Shown here piece after piece: positions 7,203 through 30,344 of a stretch of DNA of 64,000 bases. The position numbers and the translations under genes are program-made. Source of the DNA: Squalus acanthias (lineage: Eukaryota); assembly GCA_030390025.1 (NCBI GenBank), contig CM059431.1, positions 103,728,001-103,792,000 of the forward strand, given 5' to 3'. Under the pieces are notes generated by a model. It was not told the DNA's origin, made no database searches, and worked only from the letters and a program-made list of their open reading frames with translations. The first letter of the stretch is position 1, and the number at the start of each line of letters is the position of its first letter.

Positions 7203-7451
7203 AATATTGCAGGAATCTGTGGAGCTCTGGGTTGCTTCACTAATAATATCGCGAGTTGGATTAAGTTTAACTGCATAATAATTTTGCGGGGGGGCGGAGG
7301 GCTGCGGAGATTTATTCGCTTGAAGCGTGAGCTCCGTGTGAAGGGAAAGAAGAAGAAAAGTAATGAAAATGGACATTTGCTGAGTTTTGTTGGCGCAGAT
7401 TTTCTTTCCCTGACGTGGCTATGTTCGGCAGCAGTGAACTCTTTTCACCAC

Positions 7452-10400
7452 CCGCCCTGCCCCGCCCTGCCCCGCCCAGCCCCTCCCCTCCTCGCCCCTC
7501 CCCTCCCCTCCCTGCCCTTCCCCTCCCCTCCCCGCCCCTCCCCTCCCCACCCCGCCACTCCCCACCCCGCCCAGCCCCTCCCCTCCTCGCCCCTCCCCTC
7601 CCCGCCCTGCCCTTCCCCTCCCCTCCCCTCCCCGCCCCTCCCCTCCCCACCCCGCCACTCCCCACCCCGCCCAGCCCCTCCCCTCCTCGCCCCTCCCCTC
7701 CCCTCCCCTCCCTGCCCTTCCCCTCCCCTCCCCTCCCTGCCCCTCCCCTCCCCACCCCGCCACTCCCCTCCCCACCCAGCCCCTCCCCACCCCTCCCCTC
7801 CCCTCCCCGCCCAGCCTCTCCCCTCCCCTCCCCGCCCAGCCTCTCCCCTCCCCTTCCCGCCCAACCCCTCCCCACCCCTCCTCTCCCCTTCCCGCCCAAC
7901 CCCTCCCCACACCTCCCCACCCAACCCCTCCCCACCCCTCCCCGCCCAGCCTCTCCCCACCCCTCCCCTCCCCTCCCCGCCCAGCCTCTCCCCTCCCCTT
8001 CCCGCCCAACCCCTCCCCACCCCTCCCCTCCCCTTCCCGCCCAACCCCTCCCCACACTGCCCCTCCCCACCCCTCCCCTCCCCTCCCCGCCCAGCCTCTC
8101 CCCACCCCACCCCGCCCAACCCCTCCCCACCCCTCCCCGCCCAACCCCTCCCCACCCCTCCCCTCCCCGCCCAGCCCCTCCCCGCCCCTCCCCTCCCCTC
8201 CCCGCCCAGCCCCTCCCCGTTCCTCCCCTCCCCTCCCCGCCCCACCCAGCCCCTCCCCACCCCTCCCAACCCCCACAGCCCCTCCCCGCCCCGACCCGAC
8301 CCTCCCCTCCACGCTCCTCCTCTCCCCTCCCCGCCCATCCCCTCCCCTCCCCTCCCCATCCCCGCCCCTCCCCGCCCAGCCCCTCCCCTCCACGGCCAGC
8401 TCCTTCCCACCCCTCCCCTCCCAGCCCCTCCCCACCCCTCCCCTCCCCTCCCCCCCAGCCTCTCCCCTCCCCTCCCCGCCCAGCCTCTCCCCTCCCCTTC
8501 CCGCCCAACCCCTCCCCAGCCCGCCCCTCCCCTCCCCCCCAGCCCCTCCCCGCCCCTCCCCTCCCCGCCCAGCCCCTCACCGCCCCTCCCCTCCCCTCCC
8601 CGCCCAGCCCCTCCCCGTTCCTCCCCTCCCCTCCCCGCCCCACCCAGCCCCTCCCCACCCCTCCCCTCCCCGCCCAGCCCCTCCCCACCCCTCCCAACCC
8701 CCACAGCCCCTTCCCACCCCTCCCCTCCCAGCCCCTCCCCACCCCTCCACTCCCCTCCCCGCCCAGCCTCTCCCCTCCCCTCCCCGCCCAGCCCCTCCCC
8801 TCCCCTTCCCGCCCAACCCCTCCCCACTCCGCCCCTCCCCTCCCCTCCCCTCCACGCCCAGCATCTCCCCTCCCCGCCCAGCCCCTTCCCACCCTTCCTT
8901 CCCAGCCCCTCCCCACCCCTCCCCTCCTCTCCCCTCCCCCCCAGCCTCTCCCCTCCCCCCCAGCCTCTCCCCTCCCCTTCCCACCCAACCCCTCCCCACC
9001 CCGCCCCTCCCCTCCCCTCCCCTCCCAGCCCCTCTCCTCCCCACCCAGTCCCTTCCCACCCCTCCGCTCCCAGCCCCTCCCCTCCCCTCCCCGCCCAGCC
9101 CCTCCCCTCCCCGCCCAGCCCCTTCCCACCCCTCCCCTCCCAGCCCCTCCCCACCCCTCCCCTCCCCTCCCCTCCCCGCCCAGCCCCTCCCCTCCCCGCC
9201 CAGCCCCTTCCCACCCCTCCCCTCCCAGCCCCTCCCCACCCCTCCCCTCCCCTCCCCTCCCCTCCCCTTCCCGCCCAACCCCTCCCCACCCCGCCCCTCC
9301 CCTCCCCTCCCCGCCCCGCCCAGCCCTTCCCCTCCCCTCCCCACCCTTCCCCACCCCTCCCCTCCCCACCCAGCCCAGCCCCTCCCCACCCCTCCCCTCC
9401 CCTCCGCTTCCCGTCCAACCCCTCCCCGCCCAACCCCTCCCCACCCCTCGCCGCCCAGCCCCTCCCCACCCCTCCCCTCCCCGCCCAGCCCAGCCCCTCC
9501 CCACCCCTCCCCTCCCTTCCCCGCCCAGCCCCTCCCACCCCTCCCCGCCCAGCCCCTCCCCACCCCTCCCCGCCCAGCCCCTCCCCGCCCAGCCCCTCCC
9601 CGCCCCTCCCCTCCCCTCCCCGCCCAGCCCCTCCCCGTTCCTCCCCTCCCCTCCCCGCCCCACCCAGCCCCTCCCCACCCCTCCCAACCCCCACAGCCCC
9701 TCCCCGCCCCGACCCGACCCTCCCCTCCACGCTCCTCCTCTCCCCTCCCCGCCCATCCCCTCCCCTCCCCTCCCCATCCCCGCCCCTCCCCGCCCAGCCC
9801 CTCCCCTCCACGGCCAGCTCCTTCCCACCCCTCCCCTCCCAGCCCCTCCCCACCCCTCCCCTCCCCTCCCCGCCCAGCCTCTCCCCTCCCCTCCCCGCCC
9901 AGCCTCTCCCCTCCCCTTCCCGCCCAACCCCTCCCCACCCCGCCCCTCCCCTCCCGCCCAGCCCCTCCCCGCCCCTCCCCTCCCCGCCCAGCCCCTCACC
10001 GCCCCTCCCCTCCCCTCCCCGCCCAGCCCCTCCCCGTTCCTCCCCTCCCCTCCCCGCCCCACCCAGCCCCTCCCCACCCCTCCCCTCCCCGCCCAGCCCC
10101 TCCCCACCCCTCCCAACCCCCACAGCCCCTTCCCACCCCTCCCCTCCCAGCCCCTCCCCACCCCTCCACTCCCCTCCCCGCCCAGCCTCTCCCCTCCCCT
10201 CCCCGCCCAGCCCCTCCCCTCCCCTTCCCGCCCAACCCCTCCCCACTCCGCCCCTCCCCTCCCCTCCCCTCCACGCCCAGCATCTCCCCTCCCCGCCCAG
10301 CCCCTTCCCACCCTTCCTTCCCAGCCCCTCCCCACCCCTCCCCTCCTCTCCCCTCCCCCCCAGCCTCTCCCCTCCCCCCCAGCCTCTCCCCTCCCCTTCC

Positions 10401-11022
10401 CACCCAACCCCTCCCCACCCCGCCCCTCCCCTCCCCTCCCCTCCCAGCCCCTCTCCTCCCCACCCAGTCCCTTCCCACCCCTCCGCTCCCAGCCCCTCCC
10501 CTCCCCTCCCCGCCCAGCCCCTCCCCTCCCCGCCCAGCCCCTTCCCACCCCTCCCCTCCCAGCCCCTCCCCACCCCTCCCCTCCCCTCCCCTCCCCGCCC
10601 AGCCCCTCCCCTCCCCGCCCAGCCCCTTCCCACCCCTCCCCTCCCAGCCCCTCCCCACCCCTCCCCTCCCCTCCCCTCCCCTCCCCTTCCCGCCCAACCC
10701 CTCCCCACCCCGCCCCTCCCCTCCCCTCCCCGCCCCGCCCAGCCCTTCCCCTCCCCTCCCCACCCTTCCCCACCCCTCCCCTCCCCACCCAGCCCAGCCC
10801 CTCCCCACCCCTCCCCTCCCCTCCGCTTCCCGTCCAACCCCTCCCCGCCCAACCCCTCCCCACCCCTCGCCGCCCAGCCCCTCCCCACCCCTCCCCTCCC
10901 CGCCCAGCCCAGCCCCTCCCCACCCCTCCCCTCCCTTCCCCGCCCAGCCCCTCCCACCCCTCCCCGCCCAGCCCCTCCCCACCCCTCCCCGCCCAGCCCC
11001 TCCCCAGCCCTCCCCTCCCCTC
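7452..11022. repeat. C-rich pentamer (CCCCT/CCCCG/CCCAG/CCCCA) array with ~1419-bp higher-order duplication
   Basis: Rare markers recur at offset 1418-1419: GACCCGAC 8293/9711, CACGGCCAG 8391/9809, GCATCT 8861/10280, GTCCAAC 9413/10832. Confidence 0.95.
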
Positions 11023-11571
11023 CCTGCTGTCGAAGTTTCGACTTCCGAGTAAGACTCTTGAAACAGTATCGTCAAAGACAGGCTTTATTATTTACTTGCT
11101 TGCAAGCAGATTGCACCACAGTCCAATGGCTACGATGACACTTTGAAAAATTCACAGAAAATGGAACATTCTTATACACTGAAAACACAAGCTTTCCATA
11201 TCACATGACATGTTGTTTATGGTAAGCTAAGTTAAAAGTTAAAAAAAACATAAAAAATGCCTTACGATGAGACTAGCTAATCTCTACAAAATGGAGTCTA
11301 TCTATCTGTTCTTCTTCTCCCACCAAGGCCAAGGCACCTGGTTGTTTACTTCACTAGTCCTTGGTTATCTCAAGTTGATTAGAAGAAGCCTTTTTTCTCT
11401 CCGTACTAGCAGACTATGAAGACAGCATAGTCTGCAAAGTCAAATTCATCTCCATGAGAAGTCATAAACAACTTTATCTTTTCCCAAACAAGTCAGAGTC
11501 GGCCATTTTGTATCACTCTTTGTCTCTAGGAAGCCATTTTGTGTCCGAGAACAAAAATACACTTCCACACC

Positions 11572-13012
11572 ACCCAGCCCCTCCCCACCCAGCCCCTCCC
11601 CGCCCCTCCCCTCCCCGCCCAGCCCCTCACCGCCCCTCCCCGCCCAGCCCCTCACCGCCACTCCCCTCCCCGCCCAGCCCCTCACCGCCCCTCCCCTCCC
11701 CGCCCAGCCCCTCACCACCCGTCCCCTCCCCGCCCAGCCCCTCACCGCCTCTCCCCTCCCTGCCCAGCCCCTCACCGCCCCTCCCCTCCCCGCCCAGCCC
11801 CTCACCGCCCCTCCCCACCCCGCCCAGCCCATCACCGCCCCTCCCCTCTCCGCCCAGCCCCTCACCGCCCCTCCCCTCCCCTCCCCGCCCAGCCCCTCCC
11901 CGTTCCTCCCCTCTCCGCCCAGCCCCTCCCCGCCCCTCCCCTCCCCCACAGCCCCTCCACACCCAGCCCCTCCCCGCCCCTCCCCTCCCCTCCACGCCCA
12001 GCCCCTCCCCACCCCTCCCCTCCCCGCCCAGCCCCTCCCCGCCCCTCCCCTCCCCTACCCGCCCCGCCCCTCCCCGCCCCTCCCCTCCCCTCCCCGCCCA
12101 GCACCTCCCCTCCCTGCCCAACCCCTCCCCGCCCCTCCCCTCCCCTCCCCGCCCAACCCCTCCCCGCCCCTCCCTCCCCGCCCAGCCCCTCCCCGCCCCT
12201 CCTCGCCCTGCCCAGCCCCTCCCCACCCCTCCCCATCCCTCCCCAACCAGCCCCTCCCCGCCCCTCCCCGCCCAGCCCAGCCCCTCCCCACCCCTCCCCT
12301 CCCCACCACTCCCCTCCCTCCCCGCCCAGCCCCTCCCCATTCCTCCCCTCCCCTCCCCGCCCAGCCCCTCCCCACCCCTCCCCGCCCAGCCCCTCCCCAC
12401 CCCTCCCCTCCCCCCCAGCCCCTCCCCGCCCAGCCCCTACCCTCCCCGCCCCTCCTCTCCCCTCCACGCTCCTCCTCTCTCCTCCCCGCCCAACCCCTCC
12501 CCTCCCCATCCCCGCCCCTCCCCGCCCAGCCCCTCCCCTCCCCGCCCAGCCCCTTCCCACCCCTCCCCTCCCAGCCCCTCCCCTCCCCGCCCAGCCCCTT
12601 CCCACCCCTCCCCTCCCAGCCCCTCACCGCCCCTCCCCTCCCCGCCCAGCCCCTCACCGCCCCTCCCCTCCCCGCCCAGCCCCTCACCGCCCCTCCCCTC
12701 CCCGCCCAGCCCCTCACCGCCCCTCCCCTCCCCGCCCAGCCCCTCACCGCCCCTCCCCTCCCCGCTCAGCCCCTCACCGCCCCTCCCCTCCCCGCCCAGC
12801 CCCTCACCGCCCCTCCCCTCCCCTCCCCGCCCAGCCCCTCCCCGTTCCTCCCCTCTCCGCCCAGCCCTTCCCCGCCCCTCCCCTCCCCCACAGCCCCTCC
12901 CCACCCAGCCCCTCCCCGCCCCTCCCCTCCCCTCCACGCCCAGCCCCTCCCCACCCCTCCCCTCCCTGCCCAGCCCCTCCCCGCCCCTCCCCTCCCCTAC
13001 CCGCCCCTCCCT
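11572..13012. repeat. Second C-rich pentamer array with 30-bp subunits
   Basis: Runs of CCCGCCCAGCCCCTCACCGCCCCTCCCCTC; internal duplication at offset ~942 (GTTCCTCC 11902/12844). Confidence 0.95.
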
Positions 13013-13407
13013 TTCTCTCTTTCTTTTCAGTTGGTGAACAAGCAAAAAAAACACTGAAACTGCGCATGTGCAACTATTTCAACTTCGATGGCAGCAGCCG
13101 CTGCCTTGTTTTAATGGTTAACTCCTTTATTCGTTGGGCCTCTTGAAAAAAGGGGGGGCCACATTTAAAAATAATGGTTTCCTGTTGATGACACTGGGAC
13201 CACCCAACGTCTCCTTACTCATGGAAAAGGCGCAACACATTTTCTCAGACGCTCTGCACTAAATAAATGAAAGCCTCCCATTGCAAACTCTCCATTGCCA
13301 CCAGAATTCTGCCGGATAGCAGCGGGGAAGGACAGAAGATAAAGTTGCCACTTGTCAGAATCGTGCTCAATGCCTAATTGTTGGGAGGTATGAATATTGA
13401 CTTTCTT

Positions 13408-16665: not shown

Positions 16666-17290
16666 CCCTCCGGGCTAGGCTGTAGACTAATTCCCAACCT
16701 TTGACTCCAATGAGCTTTACAAAATATACCACCTTCTCAAGGGCAATGAGGGATGGACAATAAATGCTGGCCTTGCCAGCGATGCCCACATCCCGTGAAT
16801 GAATAAATAAATACAAAATTAGATAACAGGTTCTCTTTTGTCTTCTTGGTCTAGACACAAAAGGCATCAAGGGGTATGGGGAGAGAGCGGGAATATGGTA
16901 TTGAGATCGAGGATCAGCCATGATCATATTGAATGGTGGAGCAGGCTCGAAGGGCCGGATGGCCGACTCCTGCACCTATTTTTCTATGTTTCTATGGTCA
17001 CTGCTGATGAATAATAATCAACTCTTATGGATTTGATGTTTATAATTGGTCTAATTTAAGTTCTGAATTTCAAAAAATAATAGGCTGAGATTGTTTAATT
17101 ATTTGATTAGGCCAAAAACAACGTATCATAAAAATTTTATATGTTTTTAAGGACAGTATTTTTCTGAGGTCACTGACGAAATACTGAGGGTAACCGTTGA
17201 TCACTTTCACCTATCGTCAGCCTTTGGATATAACCAGATCAAAATAGAACAAGTAACAAAACAGCAAGTAATCAAAAAGGCAAATGGATT

Positions 17291-17869
17291 TGTTAGGGAG
17301 AAATTATTTCACTCCAGTCTGTTTATAGGTAAAAAGCAAAAAACAGTTTATTTAATATTCAGAGATCCCTGGGAGAAGTGGTACAGAACCTTGCTTGGTC
17401 TGATGGCTTCACTTCTCGACCTCTCATTGTCAATGACAACCTTTTATTGAAGAGTTGTCCAATCACATAGTTACAAAATATCACATGATTACAAGTATGT
17501 CCATTTCAAACTTAAACAGCTTACAATTAATTCGTTATATTCTAAACAATTTATGTCAGTTCAAGCTAAATCATTAATTCGTTATATTTTAATTCAAACT
17601 AAATAATTATGTTGCAAACTAAACCATTAATTCGTTATACCAAATAATTATGTTGCAAATTAAAAGCATTAATGACGTGTATATGTAATCTTGTTAGAGG
17701 CCCAGTGTCTGGGTTTTGCAGTCTTTCATTGTGTTCATGACCTTGATTGTTGCTAAGTATCACAACGCTCAACCAGGCCTTATCTCCCACCTGGCTTCCC
17801 TTCGGTTTCATACAGAAAATGAGAATTGGTTTTATTTTAATTTAAAGTGAGTTCAAATTAACTCTTTCA
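17291..17869 (-). repeat. 3' LTR (579 bp)
   Basis: Minus strand TGAAAGAG...CCCTAACA, directly preceded by the purine tract. Confidence 0.97.
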
Positions 17870-17880
17870 CTCCCTCCTTT
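17870..17880 (-). promoter_or_regulatory. Polypurine tract
   Basis: AAAGGAGGGAG abutting the TG of the 3' LTR. Confidence 0.9.
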
Positions 17881-18024: not shown

Positions 18025-19008
18025 TTACATATAGATATCCTGTAGTGGCTGTTCATTGCTTGGTTCAATAGTGACTACAGCAACCGGCATCATTCTGTCC
18101 ATAGCTGCCTTACAACATGCATTTAAAATCATCAAGGTAACACGGAATGCTATTCCAATTACAAGTCCATGCATCAAATATGAAACCCATGACCCCCCAA
18201 ACAACCATCCCCACCAGTTTGCTCCTGCGGTTTCGTGTAACTTCCGAACTTCCCTCTGTATGTGCTCAGCCAAATCAGTTATATTTTCTGAACTGTCAGG
18301 AATGTATGTACAGCACTCTGTCCCAATCAATGCACATGTTCCCCCTTTTTCTGCTAGGAGGTAATCAAGTGCCATTCGGTTCTGTAGCGTCACTGTCCTT
18401 ATCGCTACCATCTCGGCGTTCATGTCTGTTAGAGCTTCTGCTGTATCATTCCCAACCTGTTCTAAAATCTCTGCCAACAACCGTATCTCTTTAATAGCTC
18501 TTGCGACTCCGTATGGAGGTAGATAGATCGCAAAGTATTTTTCAGCCTCATTAATTTCTCGTTTATAACGATAGGCTGGGTGTTCCTTGAGGTTTAGGCA
18601 GTGGTGTACAAAGGGCACGACATACCCCAGATAACAAGACCCCGTCCAATTGAAAGGGAGCCACGGGTAAGCTTTATGTCCACATATGAAATAAGTGTTA
18701 TTATAGGCTTCAAACCTACTCCATATGCTATTCATCATCATGATTTTACCCTTCCATGGCCCCCCACTGGTTATGTTTGGAATTGTACCGAGATTCCACG
18801 TCCCATACGTGAGTGATGCACCACTGTACCTGCTCCTGGTCCTTTTTAATTTGTATTTCTGCTCACATCTACTCCAACCCAATGTGAAGCAAATCAGAAT
18901 GATGCATAATGCCCAGATCAATCCCCTTATCAGGGGCCATTCCCATTCTGTGTACGGTTTCCACTCTCCCTCATTTCTTATACCCGGTATTTGTTTTGTT
19001 GCGTCCAT
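18025..19008 (-). CDS. env: Gamma-type retroviral envelope ORF (327 aa) with very short SU
   Basis: Hydrophobic signal LIWALCIILICFTLG, YFICG..AY..LP.NWTGSCYLG motif, furin site RYKR (aa 147-150), immunosuppressive domain LQNRMALDYLLA, CX6CC (CALIGTECC), membrane anchor near the C-terminus. Confidence 0.92.
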   Translation of the reverse strand: MDATKQIPGIRNEGEWKPYTEWEWPLIRGLIWALCIILICFTLGWSRCEQKYKLKRTRSRYSGASLTYGTWNLGTIPNITSGGPWKGKIMMMNSIWSRFEAYNNTYFICGHKAYPWLPFNWTGSCYLGYVVPFVHHCLNLKEHPAYRYKREINEAEKYFAIYLPPYGVARAIKEIRLLAEILEQVGNDTAEALTDMNAEMVAIRTVTLQNRMALDYLLAEKGGTCALIGTECCTYIPDSSENITDLAEHIQREVRKLHETAGANWWGWLFGGSWVSYLMHGLVIGIAFRVTLMILNACCKAAMDRMMPVAVVTIEPSNEQPLQDIYM

Positions 19009-19010
19009 TT

Positions 19011-19830
19011 CTACACTGGTGAAGGGTTATAGATCTTTAGCTGGGTCCAGTGTTTCCACCTTCCCATTCCCTTTATATCAATACAGGCACACGTGTCTCC
19101 ACTGATAAGGACCGGCCCATCTTGGGGCAAACCCCTGTTTTGTAGGTAGGACCTTAACCATTACTTTTGTTCCTGCAAAGGGAACGTTTGTTAACGCAGT
19201 CAAGTCTAAATTTTTATCCTTTTCTTCCTGTCTTTCTCTAACCTGCTGTCTCATTTCTTTTAACTGCTTGCTTAATTCAAGGACATATCGGCGGATCCTA
19301 TCCTGTAAGGGTCCTAGTTCCTCTCCCCCCGTGATAATTCCATAAGGGAGTTGCATTGCTCGCCCTGTCATTAATTCATAGGGAGATAAGCCTGTCGTTC
19401 GATTAGGGATAGCTCGCAATTTCATCAGGACTGCGGGCAGAGCATCTACCCAAAATTGGTGGGTTTCACTCAGAGCCTTTGCTAATGCGGTTTTTAGGGT
19501 TCGGTTCATTCGCTCCACCATCCCAGAGCTCTGAGGACGGTAGGGAATGTGGAATTTTTGTTTTATTTCCATCCATGCGCAGATATTCTTTACTACCTTT
19601 CCCGTGAAATGGGTTCCCTGGTCAGAGTCGATTTGAGTAGGAACCCCCCACCTCGGTATTATTTCTTCTGCCATTACCCAGGCCACTGTGGCAGCTGTGC
19701 AGTTTCGTGTGGGGAAAGCTTCCACCCATCTTATGAATTGATCTATTATCACTAAGCAGTATACCCTTCCCCTTGAGATCGGTAGGGGTCCCGTAAAGTC
19801 TATTTGTATCTTTTCCCAGGGACCCCTTAT
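19011..19830 (-). pseudogene. pol: Retroviral integrase core and C-terminal domain; no HHCC domain; frameshift near 19100
   Basis: PWEKIQIDFTGPLP...IDSDQGTHF...SSGMVERMNRTLK (D-D-E), WAGPY, then shifted frame WKHWTQLK ending in a stop at 19011-19013. Confidence 0.92.
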
Positions 19831-19984
19831 TCAAATTCAATTCATTGTTCCGGTGTTCCAATTCTGCCCCGCCTGGGGTATCCTCTGTTTCTTCTATCTT
19901 TCCTGATGTTACCCCGCCTGGGGTCTCCTCTACATTGCTTTGGATCTTCTCTTTCGGTGTGCTCAATTAATTTGTTGGTGCTGG

Positions 19985-20406
19985 TTAGTCATAGGCATGA
20001 GTACCCAATTGGCTTATGTATCTTACTACATAGGTTACATATATCAAATACACTATCATTACAAGTTGGAGAACTACCAGAGCGTGTGAAATAATACAAA
20101 TCTAAGGGTGTGCTGATGTATTAAGCCCAATATCCCACCAGTTTGAGTTGTCCCCTATGCTGTCAATTTCAATATCTATTCTCAAATTGTCTTGCTCCAA
20201 AACATAAAAATGCTTTAGGGAGGAGTTCAGTCGCATCACAAGCTTACTGAATTCTTCAGACACAGGGGAATGCAGTATCCGAATTGTGCCACATAATTGT
20301 GCAGCTCATACTTAAAAATGTGTTGGTTGATGGGACAGGTCCTGTTAGACCCATAAAGCATGGTAATTGCAGTAGTGGTGACACAGGAGGCACCACCAAA
20401 ACCACC
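19985..20406 (-). pseudogene. Decayed C-terminus of a second type I membrane glycoprotein (env-like)
   Basis: Manual translation with one frameshift and one stop: GGASCVTTTAITMLYGSNRTCPINQHIF..YCIP/SEEFSKLVMRLNSSLKHFYVLEQDNLRIDIEIDSIGDNSNWWDIGLNTSAHP*ICIISHALVVLQLVMIVYLIYVTYVVRYISQLGTHAYD*. Confidence 0.6.
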
Positions 20407-21989
20407 TCATACTGGATTCGCACTGGTTTTTCCCACGCTCTGTTACCTACAAAACACAATTATTACAGTCACAGTTAAATTCAGTCTTACAATCATTTCA
20501 AGCGACATTACAGTTTAACATCTAGTCAACAAATCATGGACTTAAAAGATTCTCCAGATCTCTCTTTTACTCATATCCATCTTGTGGATAATTCTTACTA
20601 AACATGATTTCTCCTTAGCCCTCAATTGTCCCAATCCAGATTCCATGTAACTCTCCACTTCAACTTCAATTTCAATCCCTCTAACAGGTACCAGTGTATT
20701 TAACTCTATTCTGATTGTTTCATTAATTAGTTAGTTTCTCGACGGAGTATGTGTCAATGCTTTAAAAGTTGTCTCGCTCTCCTGAACCACATTAACCATT
20801 TCATGTTTTGCTGTTATCAAGTAACTGAGCATGTCTGAGACCCGTTCTTCAGTGCAGATTCAACATACATTCCCGGATGGCAACTGCCTCACATGTAACA
20901 AATCACATTTGCACACTCATATCGGTATCTCCATCATGCCACATGTGCCTTTCTCGGGCTTTCAGGTATCTTTTCAAAAGATTGTCTGGAGGTCTTTGTT
21001 CATCTTCCTCTGCATGGTCCCGATGTCTTTGATAGTGGCCAGGCTATCAAATTCAGTTTCCTTAAAAAGTTCATTATAGGCAGGGACACAAATGTCTCCA
21101 AGAGAAAGCTATCAATTTACTATTCTTAACTACATTTTCCTGACTTTCACCAGAAAGTTTGGAAAATTCTCAATTAGTGGTGTAATTCTCCTGTTTCTAT
21201 CTCACCCTCAATCACTTCCTTTCTCCATTTTACACATCCTATTAATTACCATTCATATCTCATTCATGAGCCCTGGAGGAACTTTACTGTCCAGTACAAT
21301 ATTTAAGATTGAAAACATAGATCAAACATTCTCACTTGGTCCAAGTTATTAACACTTTTTATTTATCATTATTTTAGAGGATCTTTTATTTTTCCAAAAG
21401 TAACCCAATATATAGTGCCTGAGTTCATTTCGTCATTTCAAAATTATCCCGAAATCCAAACAGCAGTACTGTTGAACTGACAGGTCTTGTCAATGTTCAA
21501 TTTCATTTCTATAACTTAAACAGCTGTCAGTGGAAAGGGTTAACTCCTTTGCAGGGTTTTTTTTTAAGAAGGCGGAGCAAAACATTGTCAGACGCACGCA
21601 ATTGCGTCATTTCACGTAACTGAACACGAACAGAAAAAAACAAAACAAACCAGTACATGCTTGTAGAAAACCATAAATTACATCATATTTCTTATTGTCC
21701 TTTCTTCAGATGCCTTTCCAAAATACTGTAAAAACATTGAATATAACTGGAGAAAAATTCGTTTTTCACATTTAAGCAAATCAAATCACACTGCTTTGGA
21801 AGATTTCACCATAGCAACCGCGACTCCAAGGTTAAATCTTAGACCGAAACTTAATCTTTGTTAAACAAACTTTTGTTCTTCTCAGTTTTACACACCAGCT
21901 TAACTTAAATTGTAGTTCAAAGTTTTTTTTCTAATTCTTGGGTCACAATTTGTTGCAGCCACACATCGTGGCATTGCCTTCGCTGCTGG

Positions 21990-22166
21990 ATCCCTCTTTA
22001 ACTAACTGTTGAATCGGCTCTGCTTTCCCTGCAAAGTCTGATATAAAACTCCTGTCTATCCCTGACAGTAAAAGCAAATTTCCCTTGTGATTCCTCTGCC
22101 TATGGTATGGACCAGAACCCGTTCTGTATCCAAGACTGTAAATATTTTAAAGTCTGGTTTCAGACC
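21990..22166 (-). pseudogene. pol: Reverse transcriptase remnant (primer-grip/thumb region)
   Basis: Fragments GLKPDFK..., HTIGRG and RSFISDFAGKAEPIQQLVKEG resemble the CR.FI.DFA..A.PL..L.K thumb motif; no YxDD found. Confidence 0.6.
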
Positions 22167-22789
22167 ATTAAATATCTTATTCAATGTGGTCTACACAAAT
22201 TTGCACCAACCAGAATTTCACCGTGCACAATAAAAGTCTGGTTTTAATAGGTTAATTAACCACAATAACTCCAATTCAATCTAGATCAAAATTTTCTTTT
22301 AAACTAACCAGTATCAAAGATAAAGAAAGAAACCATAGCCACATTAACAAAGAAACAATTACCCATTCCTTGTAGACATTCAAATTCATTTTTTTCTTCC
22401 AGGCACATTGGCAACTGTGACTTCAAGGCTGAAGCTTATTTTTTTGTAAAACAATTAACAAACTCAAAACAACAAAACAAGTTTTCAAAGGGTTAAACAG
22501 TTTTTAGCTCTCTGTACAAAAGAGTGGGTGGAGCCAAACAAAAATGACAGACACCTTTTTAAAGACAGACTCTCAGACAAAAGAAATACTGCAACTCCTT
22601 AAACATTCACAGTCAGGAAAACTTACACTTTAACACACACTTTCACATAAACTTAGATCCCAGCATTCCTTTTAAGATTCCTTTCACTCAACAAATCTTG
22701 TGTTTTATTTGTCTCGGCACAGACATTAATAACTTCCATGTCGGTAAAACTTTAAATTTCTCTCTTTTTCTTTTTACATGGTATCTCAG

Positions 22790-23274
22790 CAGCTTTCCTG
22801 GCTTTCCAAATCCCTTTTTCTTTGTCTAAGCTGAGTTTCAGATTGGTTAGCCTGCAAATTAGATCTTTTCCTTCTTTATCTTTGGTTTGTCGGACGGGGC
22901 AAATCAGTTAAAGATACTGATGCTCCTGTATCAACTAGCATTTCACACGATTGGCCCCCTAATGCTGTAACATAGACTCGGTTATCCGAGCCTCCTTTTA
23001 CTGGGGCCACCTCCCGTAATTGACTCTTCTCCTTTGACTTGAGGTACTCCATAAAGTCCCTTCTATTCTCCAGACTGAGATAAGCGCCCTGTGTCTGGTC
23101 CACGTCTCCTTTCTTCTGCCAGCAGTTATGACTCTGGTGTCCTAGCTTACCACAATAGTCACATCCCCCTTTTTTTCCACTCCTGCAATCCTTCGCCATA
23201 TGTCCCATCTTTCCACAACTATAACAGCTCCCCTGAATCCTCTTGTCCTCATCATTTCTGGCGCCTTTCTCCAT
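22790..23274 (-). pseudogene. gag: gag nucleocapsid (two CCHC knuckles) followed by aspartic protease remnant
   Basis: CYSCGKMGHMAKDC and CDYCGKLGHQSHNC; MLVDTGASVS active-site motif; GKDLICRL (GRDL-like) in another frame at ~22850-22872. Confidence 0.9.
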
Positions 23275-23873: not shown

Positions 23874-23891
23874 ATCCTGCCGACTACGCCA
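23874..23891 (-). promoter_or_regulatory. Primer-binding site, tRNA-Ser
   Basis: TGGCGTAGTCGGCAGGAT two nt after the LTR end; complementary to the vertebrate tRNA-Ser 3' end ATCCTGCCGACTACG-CCA. Confidence 0.92.
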
Positions 23892-23893
23892 AT

Positions 23894-24471
23894 TGTTAGG
23901 GAGAAATTATTTCACTCCAGTCTGTTTATAGGTAAAAAGCAAAAAACAGTTTATTTAATATTCAGAGATCCCTGGGAGAAGTGGTACAGAACCTTGCTTG
24001 GTCTGATGGCTTCACTTCTCGACCTCTCGTTGTCAATGACAACCTTTTATTGAAGAGTTGTCCAATCACATAGTTACAAAATATCACATGATTACAAGTA
24101 TGTCCATTTCAAACTTAAACAGCTTACAATTAATTCGTTATATTCTAAACAATTTATGTCAGTTCAAGCTAAATCATTAATTCGTTATATTTTAATTCAA
24201 ACTAAATAATTATGTTGCAAACTAAACCATTAATTCGTTATACCAAATAATTATGTTGCAAACTAAAAGCATTAATGACGTGTATATGTAATCTTGTTAG
24301 AGGCCCAGTGTCTGGGTTTTACAGTCTTTCATTGTGTTCATGACCTTGATTGTTGCTAAGTATCACAACGCTCAACCAGGCCTTATCTCCACCTGGCTTC
24401 CCTTCGGTTTCATACAGAAAATGAGAATTCGTTATATTTTAATTTAAAGTGAGTTCAAATTAACTCTTTCA
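23894..24471 (-). repeat. 5' LTR (578 bp)
   Basis: Matches 17291-17869 with 5 substitutions and one 1-bp indel by eye. Confidence 0.97.
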
Positions 24472-25121
24472 GAATGTTGGCCTTTATTTCAAAGGGGTTG
24501 GAGTATAAAAGCAGGGAAGTCCTGCTACAACTGTAAAGGGTATTGGTGAGACCACACCTGGAGTACTGCGTACAGTTTTGGTCTCCTTATTTAAGGAAGG
24601 ATATACTTGCATTGGAGGCAGTTCAGAGACGATTCACTAGGTTAATTCCAGAGATGAGGGGTTTGACTTATGAGGAAAGGTTGAGCAGGCTGGGCCTATA
24701 CTCATTGGAATTTAGAAGAATGAGAGGTGATCTTATTGAAACATATAAGATACTGAGGGGGCTCGACAAGGTAGATGCAGAGAGGATGTTTCCACTCGTG
24801 GGGAAATCTAGAACTCAGGGGCACAGTTTTGCAATAAAGGGTCGCCCTTTTAGAACTGAGATGAGGAGGAATTTCTTCTCTCAGAGGGTTGTAAATCTGT
24901 GGAATTCTCTGCCCCAGAGAGTTGTGGAGGCTGGGTCATTAAATACATTTAAGGTGGAGACAGACACATTTTTGCAAGATAAGGGAGTGAAGGGTTATGG
25001 GGAGCGGGCGGGAAGTGGCTTTGAGCCCAAGATCAGCCATGATCTTATTGAATAGCGGAGCAGGCTCGAGGGGCCAAGTGGCCTATTCTTGCTCCTATTT
25101 CTTATGTTCTTATGTTCTTAT
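24472..25121 (+). mobile_element. CR1 LINE 3' part; its 5' continuation lies at ~17262-17290
   Basis: ORF 24543-25055 RPHLEYCVQFWSPY...RMRGDLIETYKI...WNSLP; tail (TTCTTATG)n. Confidence 0.92.
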
Positions 25122-27369: not shown

Positions 27370-27912
27370 GTTCACATTCCCTTCCTACTCTCCAAATAAA
27401 ATCCAAATAAACTCTTATGGCCTAGAGATTGGAGGTGTTAGCGCCGGCCGTTAAGGCCCGTTTTGGCAAAAAAAAATGGCGGCCGCCTCACTTCCGCCCG
27501 CTTCCGGCAGGTCCTGTGGTGGCCGCCATTTTCAGCTGGCAGGGAGCGCTGCGGATGTTCGCACTCGCAGGAGATATGTAGAATATGCAGATTGTGACGT
27601 CAGTGAGTGTGCAACGCTCACCTGACGCCCATTCTGCCATTTTCGAGTTCGCCACTCCACTTACCGGCCTGTGTTAATGATGACCAGCTGACCAAGCATG
27701 GACAAGCAGGAAGGAGCCTCCAGCAGCGATATTTAAAGTGATCATCAGCAACAAATTGCAGCTGGCATGCTTTTTCAGTTCGACTGGCTCTGTGTAACTT
27801 TCTGCAACTCCTGCCGCTTTCTAAACTTGTTTCAAGTTCCTGAGGTGATAGGGAGTGTTGGTGCAAGTGGAGAACGCCTTCATTCTCACTTAAAGGCTTC
27901 TGCTCACACCAC

Positions 27913-29102
27913 TTGGGGGCTCTACTGGCAGTCCTCCTCGCGCTCGAGTATCTTTGGGAGAGGGAGCGGAGGCAGCGAAGAAGAGAAGATGTGTGTAGCG
28001 GGAGGAGGAAGAGGGCCAGGAGGGCTGTCAACAGCAGGCATTACCCACCTAGGCTCTTCCGCAAGCCCTTCTCTTATCTTCACTTAAGCGAGGAGCAGTG
28101 TATTAGGAGACTCCGCTTCACCAAAGAGGTGGTCACAGAACTCTGCCACCTCCTGCAACCAGACCTGCAGCCTCAGACCAGGGCGACCACGGCTCTCCCA
28201 GTGTCAGTCAAGGTCACCGTGGCCCTCAATTTCTTCCCCAGTGGATCTTCCAGTCTGCAGCAGGAGACATAGCTAATATTTTGCAGTTTACCGTTGCTGC
28301 ATTCAGGAGGTCACAGAGGCTCTCAATACCAGAAGAAGGGACTACATTGTCCTCTCTCTGAACAGAGAGAAGCAGGAGGAGTGCACATGTGGCTTTGCCA
28401 GAATAGCAGGCTTCCCCATGGTGCAGGGCACCATCGACTGCACCCACGTGGCTTTGCGGGCGGCGCATAACAATCCTGAGATCTTCCGTAACCGCAAAGG
28501 CTACCACTCACTTAATGTGCAGTTGCTGTGTGACCACACACAGCGCATCCTGATGGTCAATGCCCACAATCCTGGCAGCAGTCATGGAGCCTTCTTCCTG
28601 CGTCAGTCCGGTGTGCCAGCAATCTTCCAGCTACCACGTCAAACCCGAAGGTGGCTACTCGGAGACAAGGGCTATCCGCTTTCCACCTGGCTCATGACTC
28701 CCCTCCGCAACCCCAACACTCCTGCCCAGCACTCATATAAGGAGAGCCATGCCACCACCAGGAACATCACTGAGCAGACCATCGGGCTGCTGAAGCAATG
28801 GTTCCGCTGCCTTGATCGCTTTGGGGGGAGCTCTCCAGTACTCGGCTGAGTGGGTGTCCCATTTCGTTGTGGTCTGCTGCATGCTTCACAACTTGGCCAT
28901 CATGAGGATGCAGCCCTTACCAGCAGGGATTGTGGGACCACCTCAGAAAGAGGACGAGGGAGAGGAGGAGGAGGAGGAGGAGGGGGAAAAGGAAGAGGAG
29001 CAAGAGGAAGAGAAAGAGGAGGAGGACAAGAAGGAAGGGAGGAGGCAGGAAGCAAATCCCCCTTCCACACGGGCTGCCCGTGAACGTCTCATCAGACTCT
29101 GA
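27913..29102 (+). pseudogene. Harbinger (HARBI1-like) DDE transposase, frameshifted
   Basis: LSEEQCIRRLRFTK, GTIDCTHV, RNRKGYHSLNVQ, PGSSH, LLGDKGYP, RNITEQTIGLLKQWFRCL, CCMLHNLA and an acidic tail across three ORFs. Confidence 0.92.
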
Positions 29103-29360
29103 TTCAAGTGAATGAAACCCCAGATCCCCCTTGTTCACTGCATCCCCATCATAACATCCCTCTGTCACGGAATGTCACAGCATCCTCCTGGGCACAAAAC
29201 CGAAATGAAAGCAGAAAGGCACAAGGCTCAGGTTGTGGTGAGGGTAGTGGGGAGGAATGCAAGATATGCATGCCTACAGCATCAGCAGCTTGTAAGTGAG
29301 AAGAGATTGTGGGATGAGGGCGGAGTGGGATGTGAGAAGAAGGATTAGGAATGACCATAC

Positions 29361-30059
29361 CTTTATTGTCCCCAAGGGCTTCAACTTCACCCGGCCCCGG
29401 TGAATTCCCCTCCAATGATGTCGAGCACCGTCTCCTCCAGTTGGCTCAAGGTCTCTAAAGCAACGTGGCCGCCTCCCTTCTGCCGCTACTCGTGGCGGTT
29501 GTGAGCTACCTTGGCCTGCAAGAGAAAGAGAAGTGTGTCAGTGTGGTGCAATGTGTTTGAGTGATGTGCCTGCCATAGTTGAATAGCTTCAGTGTGTGCA
29601 AGGTGTCAGATGTGGGTGTGAGTGGTGCAGCAGTGGTACGGTTGTGAGGGTGAAGTGAAGCTATGATTGGGAGGTCTGAGTGTTGATAGGTAGAGATTGT
29701 TGGTAGGTGAGTGATGGGGGTGTGGTGCATTGAGCAGTGTGTGAGGCTTGTGGTACACATGGTGGGATATGGCATTGACTGAAGTCTTCACTCACCTTAA
29801 CCTGTTGTTTGAGGTCATTAAACTTCTTTCGGCACTGTGTCCAGGTCCTTGGTGTGACACTGTTGGCCGCGAGGTAGGCAGCTATCTCTTGCCAGAGCTT
29901 TCTGCAAGTGGGCTTTGATGGCTTCCTGCCGCCCTGCAGGAGCAGGACACCCCGCCTTCTCTCCACTGCCACGACCAATGCCTCGAGAGCCACATCCGAG
30001 AACCTCATGGCTCGTTGTCTGTGTTGTTGCTGAGTCACGTCTTCAAACTGCAATGACAA
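29361..30059 (-). pseudogene. Harbinger Myb/SANT DNA-binding protein (NAIF1/MSANTD-like), two exons visible
   Basis: Exon 1 RFSDVALEAL...WQEIA...RTWTQCRKKFNDL ends at 29796 before GTGAGT; acceptor TTCTCTTTCTCTTGCAG; exon 2 (29515-29361) AKVAHNRHE*RQKGGG...LSQLEETVLDIIG then GTATGG. Confidence 0.85.
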
Positions 30060-30344
30060 TGAGGTGCTGCTGCATCAAAGCACCTCCCCTTTAAATAGTG
30101 GAGTGAGGCTCGGCCAAACGTTACTGGCCATTAGACTGCACCTGACATTGGCCCGCCTGTTGAGCGCTTATCCAATCAGCAGTGCGTTTAGCTCTGCGAT
30201 CAGCACTCCAATCATGTAAATGAACAGGTAGCACGAATTTTGCATGCTGCCTGCACCACTTTGAACGCGTGCAGCCAAACAAGACTGGCTCATGTCACCG
30301 CCTGTTTTTGGACCACATCCAATTTCTAGACCGTTGTATTTTAT

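Follow-up and report, generated by a model that had tools for sequence, protein, structure and literature searches.

A decayed non-gamma envelope fragment upstream of integrase in a non-autonomous provirus of Squalus acanthias

A defective provirus in the 3.7-Gb genome of Squalus acanthias retains, upstream of its integrase, what appears to be the dead C-terminus of a second envelope gene. The fragment is very probably the 3' end of an older env from a lineage resembling that of locus L036 in the same genome, stranded when recombination added an integrase and a gamma-type env behind it. The odd gene order is most likely the scar of a template switch and not the mark of a virus with two working envelopes. 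The provirus lies on the minus strand of the window, the whole 64,000-nt stretch of DNA that was analysed, and is bounded by LTRs at 24471-23894 and 17871-17291 that are 99.0% identical across 580 nt. Its features, from 5' to 3' on that strand, are listed below.

23894..24471, minus strand: 5' LTR, ~580 nt, 99.0% identical to the 3' LTR
23874..23891, minus strand: primer-binding site, sequence read directly
22879..23246, minus strand: Gag zinc knuckles and protease stub, DNA identity 92% to the pol-bearing family L041
19829..22505, minus strand: decayed non-coding core, ~98%, common to two different LTR/gag/env families
21945..22175, minus strand: three collapsed RT/connection scraps, from comparison with 12 pol loci of the genome
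19985..20406, minus strand: the remnant, a dead env C-terminus, non-gamma and probably F-type, with homology significant for ~20310-20090 only
19821..19828, minus strand: 8-nt microhomology at the core/integrase crossover, from base-by-base comparison of two junction forms
19081..19830, minus strand: integrase core without the N-terminal zinc domain, DNA identity to L041 93% over 19828-19282
18025..19026, minus strand: shortened gamma-type env frame, 333 aa, with ISD and CX6CC
17291..17871, minus strand: 3' LTR

The primer-binding site (23874..23891) is presumably tRNA-Ser-like. A possible 4-nt target-site duplication with one mismatch flanks the provirus (17287-17290 and 24472-24475), and the 5' LTR is abutted by a LINE fragment that we take to be CR1-like. 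Elsewhere in the window, C-rich tandem arrays with a 5-nt unit and ~80% GC (7370-13060) give spurious Pro-rich and Gly-rich open frames of more than 1200 codons, and the broken frames at 27844-30074 are presumably Harbinger-like transposase and Myb/SANT-like.

Pfam analysis of the six frames of the element returned rve, rve_3, TLV_coat and zinc knuckles only, with no match to capsid, RT or RNase H. The LTR pair and primer site are retained, the essential genes are gone and the element is multicopy, as is characteristic of a non-autonomous ERV. Tiling with 120 pol relatives, none of them a named SnRV protein, placed the protease stub at 22989-22879, the RT scraps at ~22180-21970 and the integrase from ~19830, with zero coverage between ~21970 and 19830; a reading of the core as merely decayed pol was rejected on account of this uncovered stretch. 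The core measures about 2.7-3 kb, contig depth suggesting a 5' reach to ~22870, and contains mere scraps of RT. These scraps match pol families of this genome (12 pol loci compared), the last of them showing 91% identity over 55 nt to L036, a family that bears a non-gamma env. The preliminary description, made from the window's letters, had put the remnant between RT and integrase, which holds only loosely: RT is present as three scraps (22175-21945) with no Pfam RT match. The gag-pol-env order is broken in the window, where the remnant stands before integrase, and normal in L036/L045. The gamma env frame (18025..19026) is 333 aa long, compared with 528 aa for the other helper family, and its opening part is homologous to a small membrane ORF that follows integrase. 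In the L033 family a small ORF with a hydrophobic stretch lies between integrase and env (L044:231-602); its homolog in the window (~19030-18870) continues in frame into the shortened gamma env.

The remnant is read on the minus strand in two frames. Positions 20406-20269 encode a CVTT...NRT-CPI segment; positions 20266-19985, in a different frame, encode a heptad with NSS, then WW and NTS, and, after a stop at 20104-20102, a hydrophobic stretch that leads into a short tail. The parts follow one another as Cys segment, HR2-like heptad, Trp-rich membrane-proximal region, anchor and short tail, confirming the layout of cysteines, sequons, heptad, WW, anchor and tail first proposed. Also confirmed was the absence of ISD and CX6CC, both present in the env downstream. 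The peak 19-residue hydropathy is 2.49. Hydrophobicity by itself proves little about an anchor: the six frames of the core hold 101 segments free of stops, and 7 of these score at least 1.8. We compared 21 other copies, namely 20 close copies out of at least 40 (1323 candidates) and the divergent copy L043, which is 92% identical to the window core. CVTT, NSS, WW and NTS were kept in all 21, NRT was present in 20, and the Cys of CPI occurred in 4. The frameshift near 20265 that had been described recurs in L011, whereas most copies are broken near 20357; the frame of L043 is also interrupted, between CVTT and NRT.

Homology to an envelope was established within the same genome. The 91% match of the last RT scrap to L036 led to a search 3' of integrase in three pol loci. 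L044 contained the start of a gamma-family env and L046 proved to be interrupted; the third, L045, which is contiguous with L036, contained a different envelope, placed normally behind integrase. Read by eye, this L045 env lacks ISD and shows a basic site of furin type, then two heptads separated by a long region with cysteines, and last a membrane-proximal stretch rich in Trp. In a blind tBLASTx with the whole element, this env matched exactly at the remnant. BLASTP against it gave E 1e-9 when the natural frame of copy L043 (142 aa) was the query and E 1e-5 with the window piece. The 20266-19985 piece scored 72 (shuffle mean 28), a value reached by 0/1000 shuffles; the score of the L043 frame was likewise reached by none of 1000, and that of the remnant with six-frame correction by none of 300. 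Scores of the window piece against two gamma-type envs, 29 and 36, were at chance level (333/1000 and 64/1000 shuffles), and the score of the L043 frame against one gamma env was reached by 18/1000. Six-frame-corrected and frameshift-aware tests concurred, with significance confined to about 20310-20090, that is ~80 residues at ~30% identity. The CVTT piece alone was not significant (61/1000 shuffles), its best match falling in the colinear place. Pieces upstream of the remnant scored in or near the shuffle range against the L045 env (best 3/60 for the window and 1/60 for L014, uncorrected), and a by-eye likeness of 21000-20400 to the upstream part of the env was dropped on these scores.

These comparisons support the remnant as a piece of an envelope that does not significantly match gamma-type env; the proposal of an envelope relic unrelated to the gamma env is borne out by the shuffle-controlled homology. 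As the identity is only ~30%, the L036/L045 env is a relative belonging to a different family. The direct parent of the remnant was not found, L045 being a distant relative. Scoring of 138 candidates gave 145 matches to L045-type env in this genome. The locus itself (L045:770-2699, G000:C10, contiguous with L036) represents a non-gamma env family that is abundant and lies downstream of a pol of retrovirus type.

In a 37-row tree without named references, the L036 RT fell into one clade (96/88) with the gamma-env families of the genome, L033/L037, and by eye it is without lokiretroviral RT motifs. Judged from these features, the related pol genes resemble those of ordinary retroviruses and not those of lokiretroviruses.

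The remnant is dead, is changing neutrally and makes no envelope. The stop before the anchor was found in 20/20 close copies and is absent from L043; no preserved frame, a point on which the preliminary description was to be judged, occurs among the close copies. Nineteen of the 20 upstream-frame stops of the window are common to at least 18/20 close copies, and 17 are common to L043. For the heptad-anchor frame, pN/pS was 1.06 against L043 (22 differences) and 0.86 when pooled over the close copies, which are not independent, and for integrase it was 0.21 against L041 and 0.09 against L033. The remnant was already broken in the amplified master RNA. Because the integrase-less L043 and the window have 17/20 upstream stops in common, decay preceded the join. 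There is no sign of a function for the remnant. The idea of one recombinant carrying two unrelated envelope genes is upheld as regards recombination and the two env types, but not as regards a second functional env, the remnant being dead and the gamma env shortened.

The junction supports a recombinant origin of the element. Compared base by base, the window matches L043 as far as 19821 and, from 19828 onward, the pol-bearing L041, the two matches overlapping by 8 nt. In L043 the core (92%) extends to 19821, with no integrase beyond it; a purine run occurs within ~200 nt after the core end, and the locus is interrupted just beyond. Both junction forms are recurrent: the integrase-less 3' end of the core was found at at least 40 loci, and the core joined to integrase through the 8-nt microhomology at at least 40 loci (for each form 40/40 scored matches, essentially full length). 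Contigs of run X12 also diverge from the reference at 19821.

The same core resides in two shells. Five of the 20 close copies have the window's LTR, gag and env; the other 15 have only 22505-19210 in common with it and carry a different LTR, gag and gamma env, of which the env and LTR are also found downstream of the intact pol of L033. LTR pairs of the copies are mostly >97% identical. In the 15 type-B copies (L013-L030), the core plus integrase sits within the second LTR/gag/env shell; a 528-codon gamma env frame is kept in 3/15 and a 501-codon frame in 1/15, and RT is gone. All 5 same-shell copies have ~300 extra bases, GC-rich in L025, that are missing from the window at 23260-23261. In four public runs from four organisms, summed contig depth, which is not copy number, was generally higher over the core than over gag, integrase and env; the excess was about tenfold or more in X7 and X9 and uneven in X12 and X19, and the RNA labels of the runs are guesses. 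In X9 (guessed RNA), summed depth over window positions 19830-22870 was ~1e4-3e5, compared with ~2e2-2e3 elsewhere, which may reflect high transcription or high copy number. A look for expression brought up no RNA data set.

The L045-type env and the remnant are probably F-type, on the basis of a by-eye comparison with lokiretrovirus Env; scored F-fold tests were negative or uninformative. In an unscored comparison by eye, the L045 env and the Loki-Xtr Env, as given in the accessible part of the PMC7947760 supplement, have an ordered set of short motifs in common: a basic cleavage site followed by a heptad, a leucine-IPVV strand followed by N-x-G, and an LN-x-C cysteine pair followed by CG and then one more cysteine. 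A furin site/fusion peptide/HR1/Cys-rich/HR2/anchor layout can be read by eye in L045, and the remnant keeps its C-terminal part with significance. A Pfam scan of fragments (remnant, L045 env) found no fusion-protein family and no Foamy_virus_ENV, PDB sequence searches gave nothing with E below 0.04 and no match to foamy Env, and a strict first look for PF00523 across the genome, of low sensitivity, gave 0/7 candidates. An F-like type, as first suggested, is plausible by eye against Loki-Xtr Env and drew no scored support from Pfam, PDB sequences or PF00523. Structure prediction, one of the checks originally proposed, was uninformative: the single-sequence model had a pLDDT of 31.5, and a fold search with that poor model gave 0 matches at E<=0.001. 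Atlas returned for the L045 env sub-threshold matches only, to mixed viral glycoproteins (best 0.86, recognition 1525); its capsid matches for the remnant were rejected for low recognition (1704). When the 444-codon upstream read (21600-20269) was searched with phmmer against 1.84 billion proteins, the single match was a tandem-repeat artefact. A word-indexed search of longer proteins only yielded 0/52 candidates for the remnant and 0/2020 for the L045 env, and no relative was present among 3 and 362 pattern matches in viral and metagenome contigs. The F label does not imply a lokiretrovirus, because F-like Env is known in both foamy viruses and lokiretroviruses.

Blank results in every scored F test, together with the mixed sub-threshold Atlas matches, favour an env of neither gamma nor F type (for instance epsilon-, snakehead- or Ovex1-type, if the fold differs), and the epsilon env is described as structurally distinct in the accessible part of PMC3758190. 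We nevertheless consider this unlikely, since the Loki-Xtr motif order, the Cys-containing region between heptads and the furin-like site fit the F-like architecture of foamy Env, as far as it is set out in the accessible part of PMC11468914. Such an env would touch the type label alone and is compatible with the same recombination history. Derivation from a lokiretrovirus proper is less likely still. The by-eye motif order common to the L045 env and the Loki-Xtr Env (accessible part of the PMC7947760 supplement) speaks for it, but the RT of the family with the homologous env groups with gamma-env families (96/88, in a tree without lokiretrovirus RT), the loki RT motifs are missing from L036 by eye, and the core RT scraps match the same gamma-env-grouping families. 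A lokiretroviral source, to which the preliminary description had pointed, is accordingly unsupported.

A true two-envelope virus, whose ancestor expressed both a non-gamma and a gamma env and whose first env decayed later, would explain why both env types occur inside one LTR-bounded unit at many loci, and the stop before the anchor is missing from one divergent copy, L043. That copy, however, is the integrase-less form and has 17/20 upstream stops in common with the window, and the join cuts into integrase; we regard such a virus as very improbable. Least probable of all is a captured host membrane-protein exon, or a set of chance features in AT-rich junk. Hydrophobic stretches are indeed common in core DNA (7/101), one cysteine is a minority state among the copies, and protein database searches were empty; yet the match to a retroviral env of the same genome is significant and shuffle-controlled, and the anchor-bearing frame gave 0/52 word-sharing host-protein candidates in a weak search. 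A host membrane protein as best match, which had been named as the sign of gene capture, found no support in that search (0/52).

Stranding of an older env by recombination could have come about as follows. The source would be an older retrovirus of the L036-like lineage, with a retrovirus-type pol and a non-gamma, probably F-type env, as the env homology suggests. An L036-like provirus would have lost nearly all of pol and given rise to a non-autonomous RNA in which the env remnant was normally placed near the 3' end. The stops in common indicate that this region was broken before the present copies diverged, and it is now changing neutrally. After co-packaging with a gamma-env helper, RT may have switched templates at the 8-nt microhomology that is observed ~155 nt past the remnant, a switch by which the element would have gained the integrase core, gamma env and LTR of the helper. 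Further switches would have brought the core plus integrase into the two LTR/gag/env shells seen in the two families, and recent spread of both shells by complementation in trans would accord with established retroviral biology. The remnant would have been carried as a passenger, possibly beside cis signals that aid packaging.

On a broader reading, towards which we lean only slightly, a retrovirus lineage of this cartilaginous fish that is neither loki nor foamy carries an F-type env at more than 100 loci, its close RT relatives have gamma env, and the element keeps both sides of an F-to-gamma replacement, with the old env upstream and the new env appended at the mapped crossover. If true, this would support the view that F-like Env is an old condition in one more branch of retroviruses, where gamma-type env has overwritten it, and the swap would be datable. 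Since the old env is lost, swaps are usually inferred from conflict between pol and env trees; a single genome here shows the displaced env, the crossover and the two parental forms together. The remnant has also led to an abundant family of non-gamma envs that went unrecognised in the Pfam, PDB-sequence and protein-database searches run, and this L045 family is probably an object of more value than the remnant itself. Were the L045-type env F-like, it would add a retroviral branch beside foamy viruses and lokiretroviruses and bear on the ancestral status of F-like Env in retroviruses.

The finding is a variation on known env swapping and non-autonomous ERV biology. Lokiretrovirus Env is a class I envelope related to F that has a furin site, heptads and an anchor, and lokiretroviruses were found in 0/6 cartilaginous-fish genomes, according to the accessible part of PMC7947760. 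The L045 env, which the remnant matches, shows motif parallels by eye with that Env; in contrast to lokiretroviruses, the associated pol here is retrovirus-like, and in the window the gene survives as a dead piece placed ahead of integrase. Foamy virus Env has an F-like 'class Ib' core, so that true retroviruses can bear F-like fusogens (PMC11468914, accessible part). Unlike foamy viruses, the window element has Gag zinc knuckles, and the related families here have gag and pol in one frame with a stop between. Incongruence of pol and env by recombination, typically with gain of a gamma-type env, is reported for class III/SnRV-related ERVs in the accessible parts of PMC8278194, 10.1101/2021.11.23.469661 and PMC3758190, and gain of gamma-type env by this route is well described there, including in fish and class III ERVs; the accessible parts of PMC8672886, PMC4422223 and PMC2717909 served as background only. 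We found no report of a displaced non-gamma env kept upstream of integrase in the literature outside subscription journals, bioRxiv supplements and the SnRV primary paper, which could describe this env type. XtERV-S has a tRNA-Ser primer site (PMC8278194, accessible part), like the one that we take the window element to have. What sets the window recombinant apart from XtERV-S and other env-swapped ERVs is that the displaced env is still visible inside it and that the swap took place in a non-autonomous element. Complementation in trans is named as a mechanism for the amplification of non-autonomous ERVs in the accessible part of PMC10435555. Like such elements, the one described here lacks matches to capsid, RT and RNase H, has LTR pairs that are nearly identical and is present in many copies; it differs from other non-autonomous ERVs in that a single core occurs in two helper shells and also without integrase.
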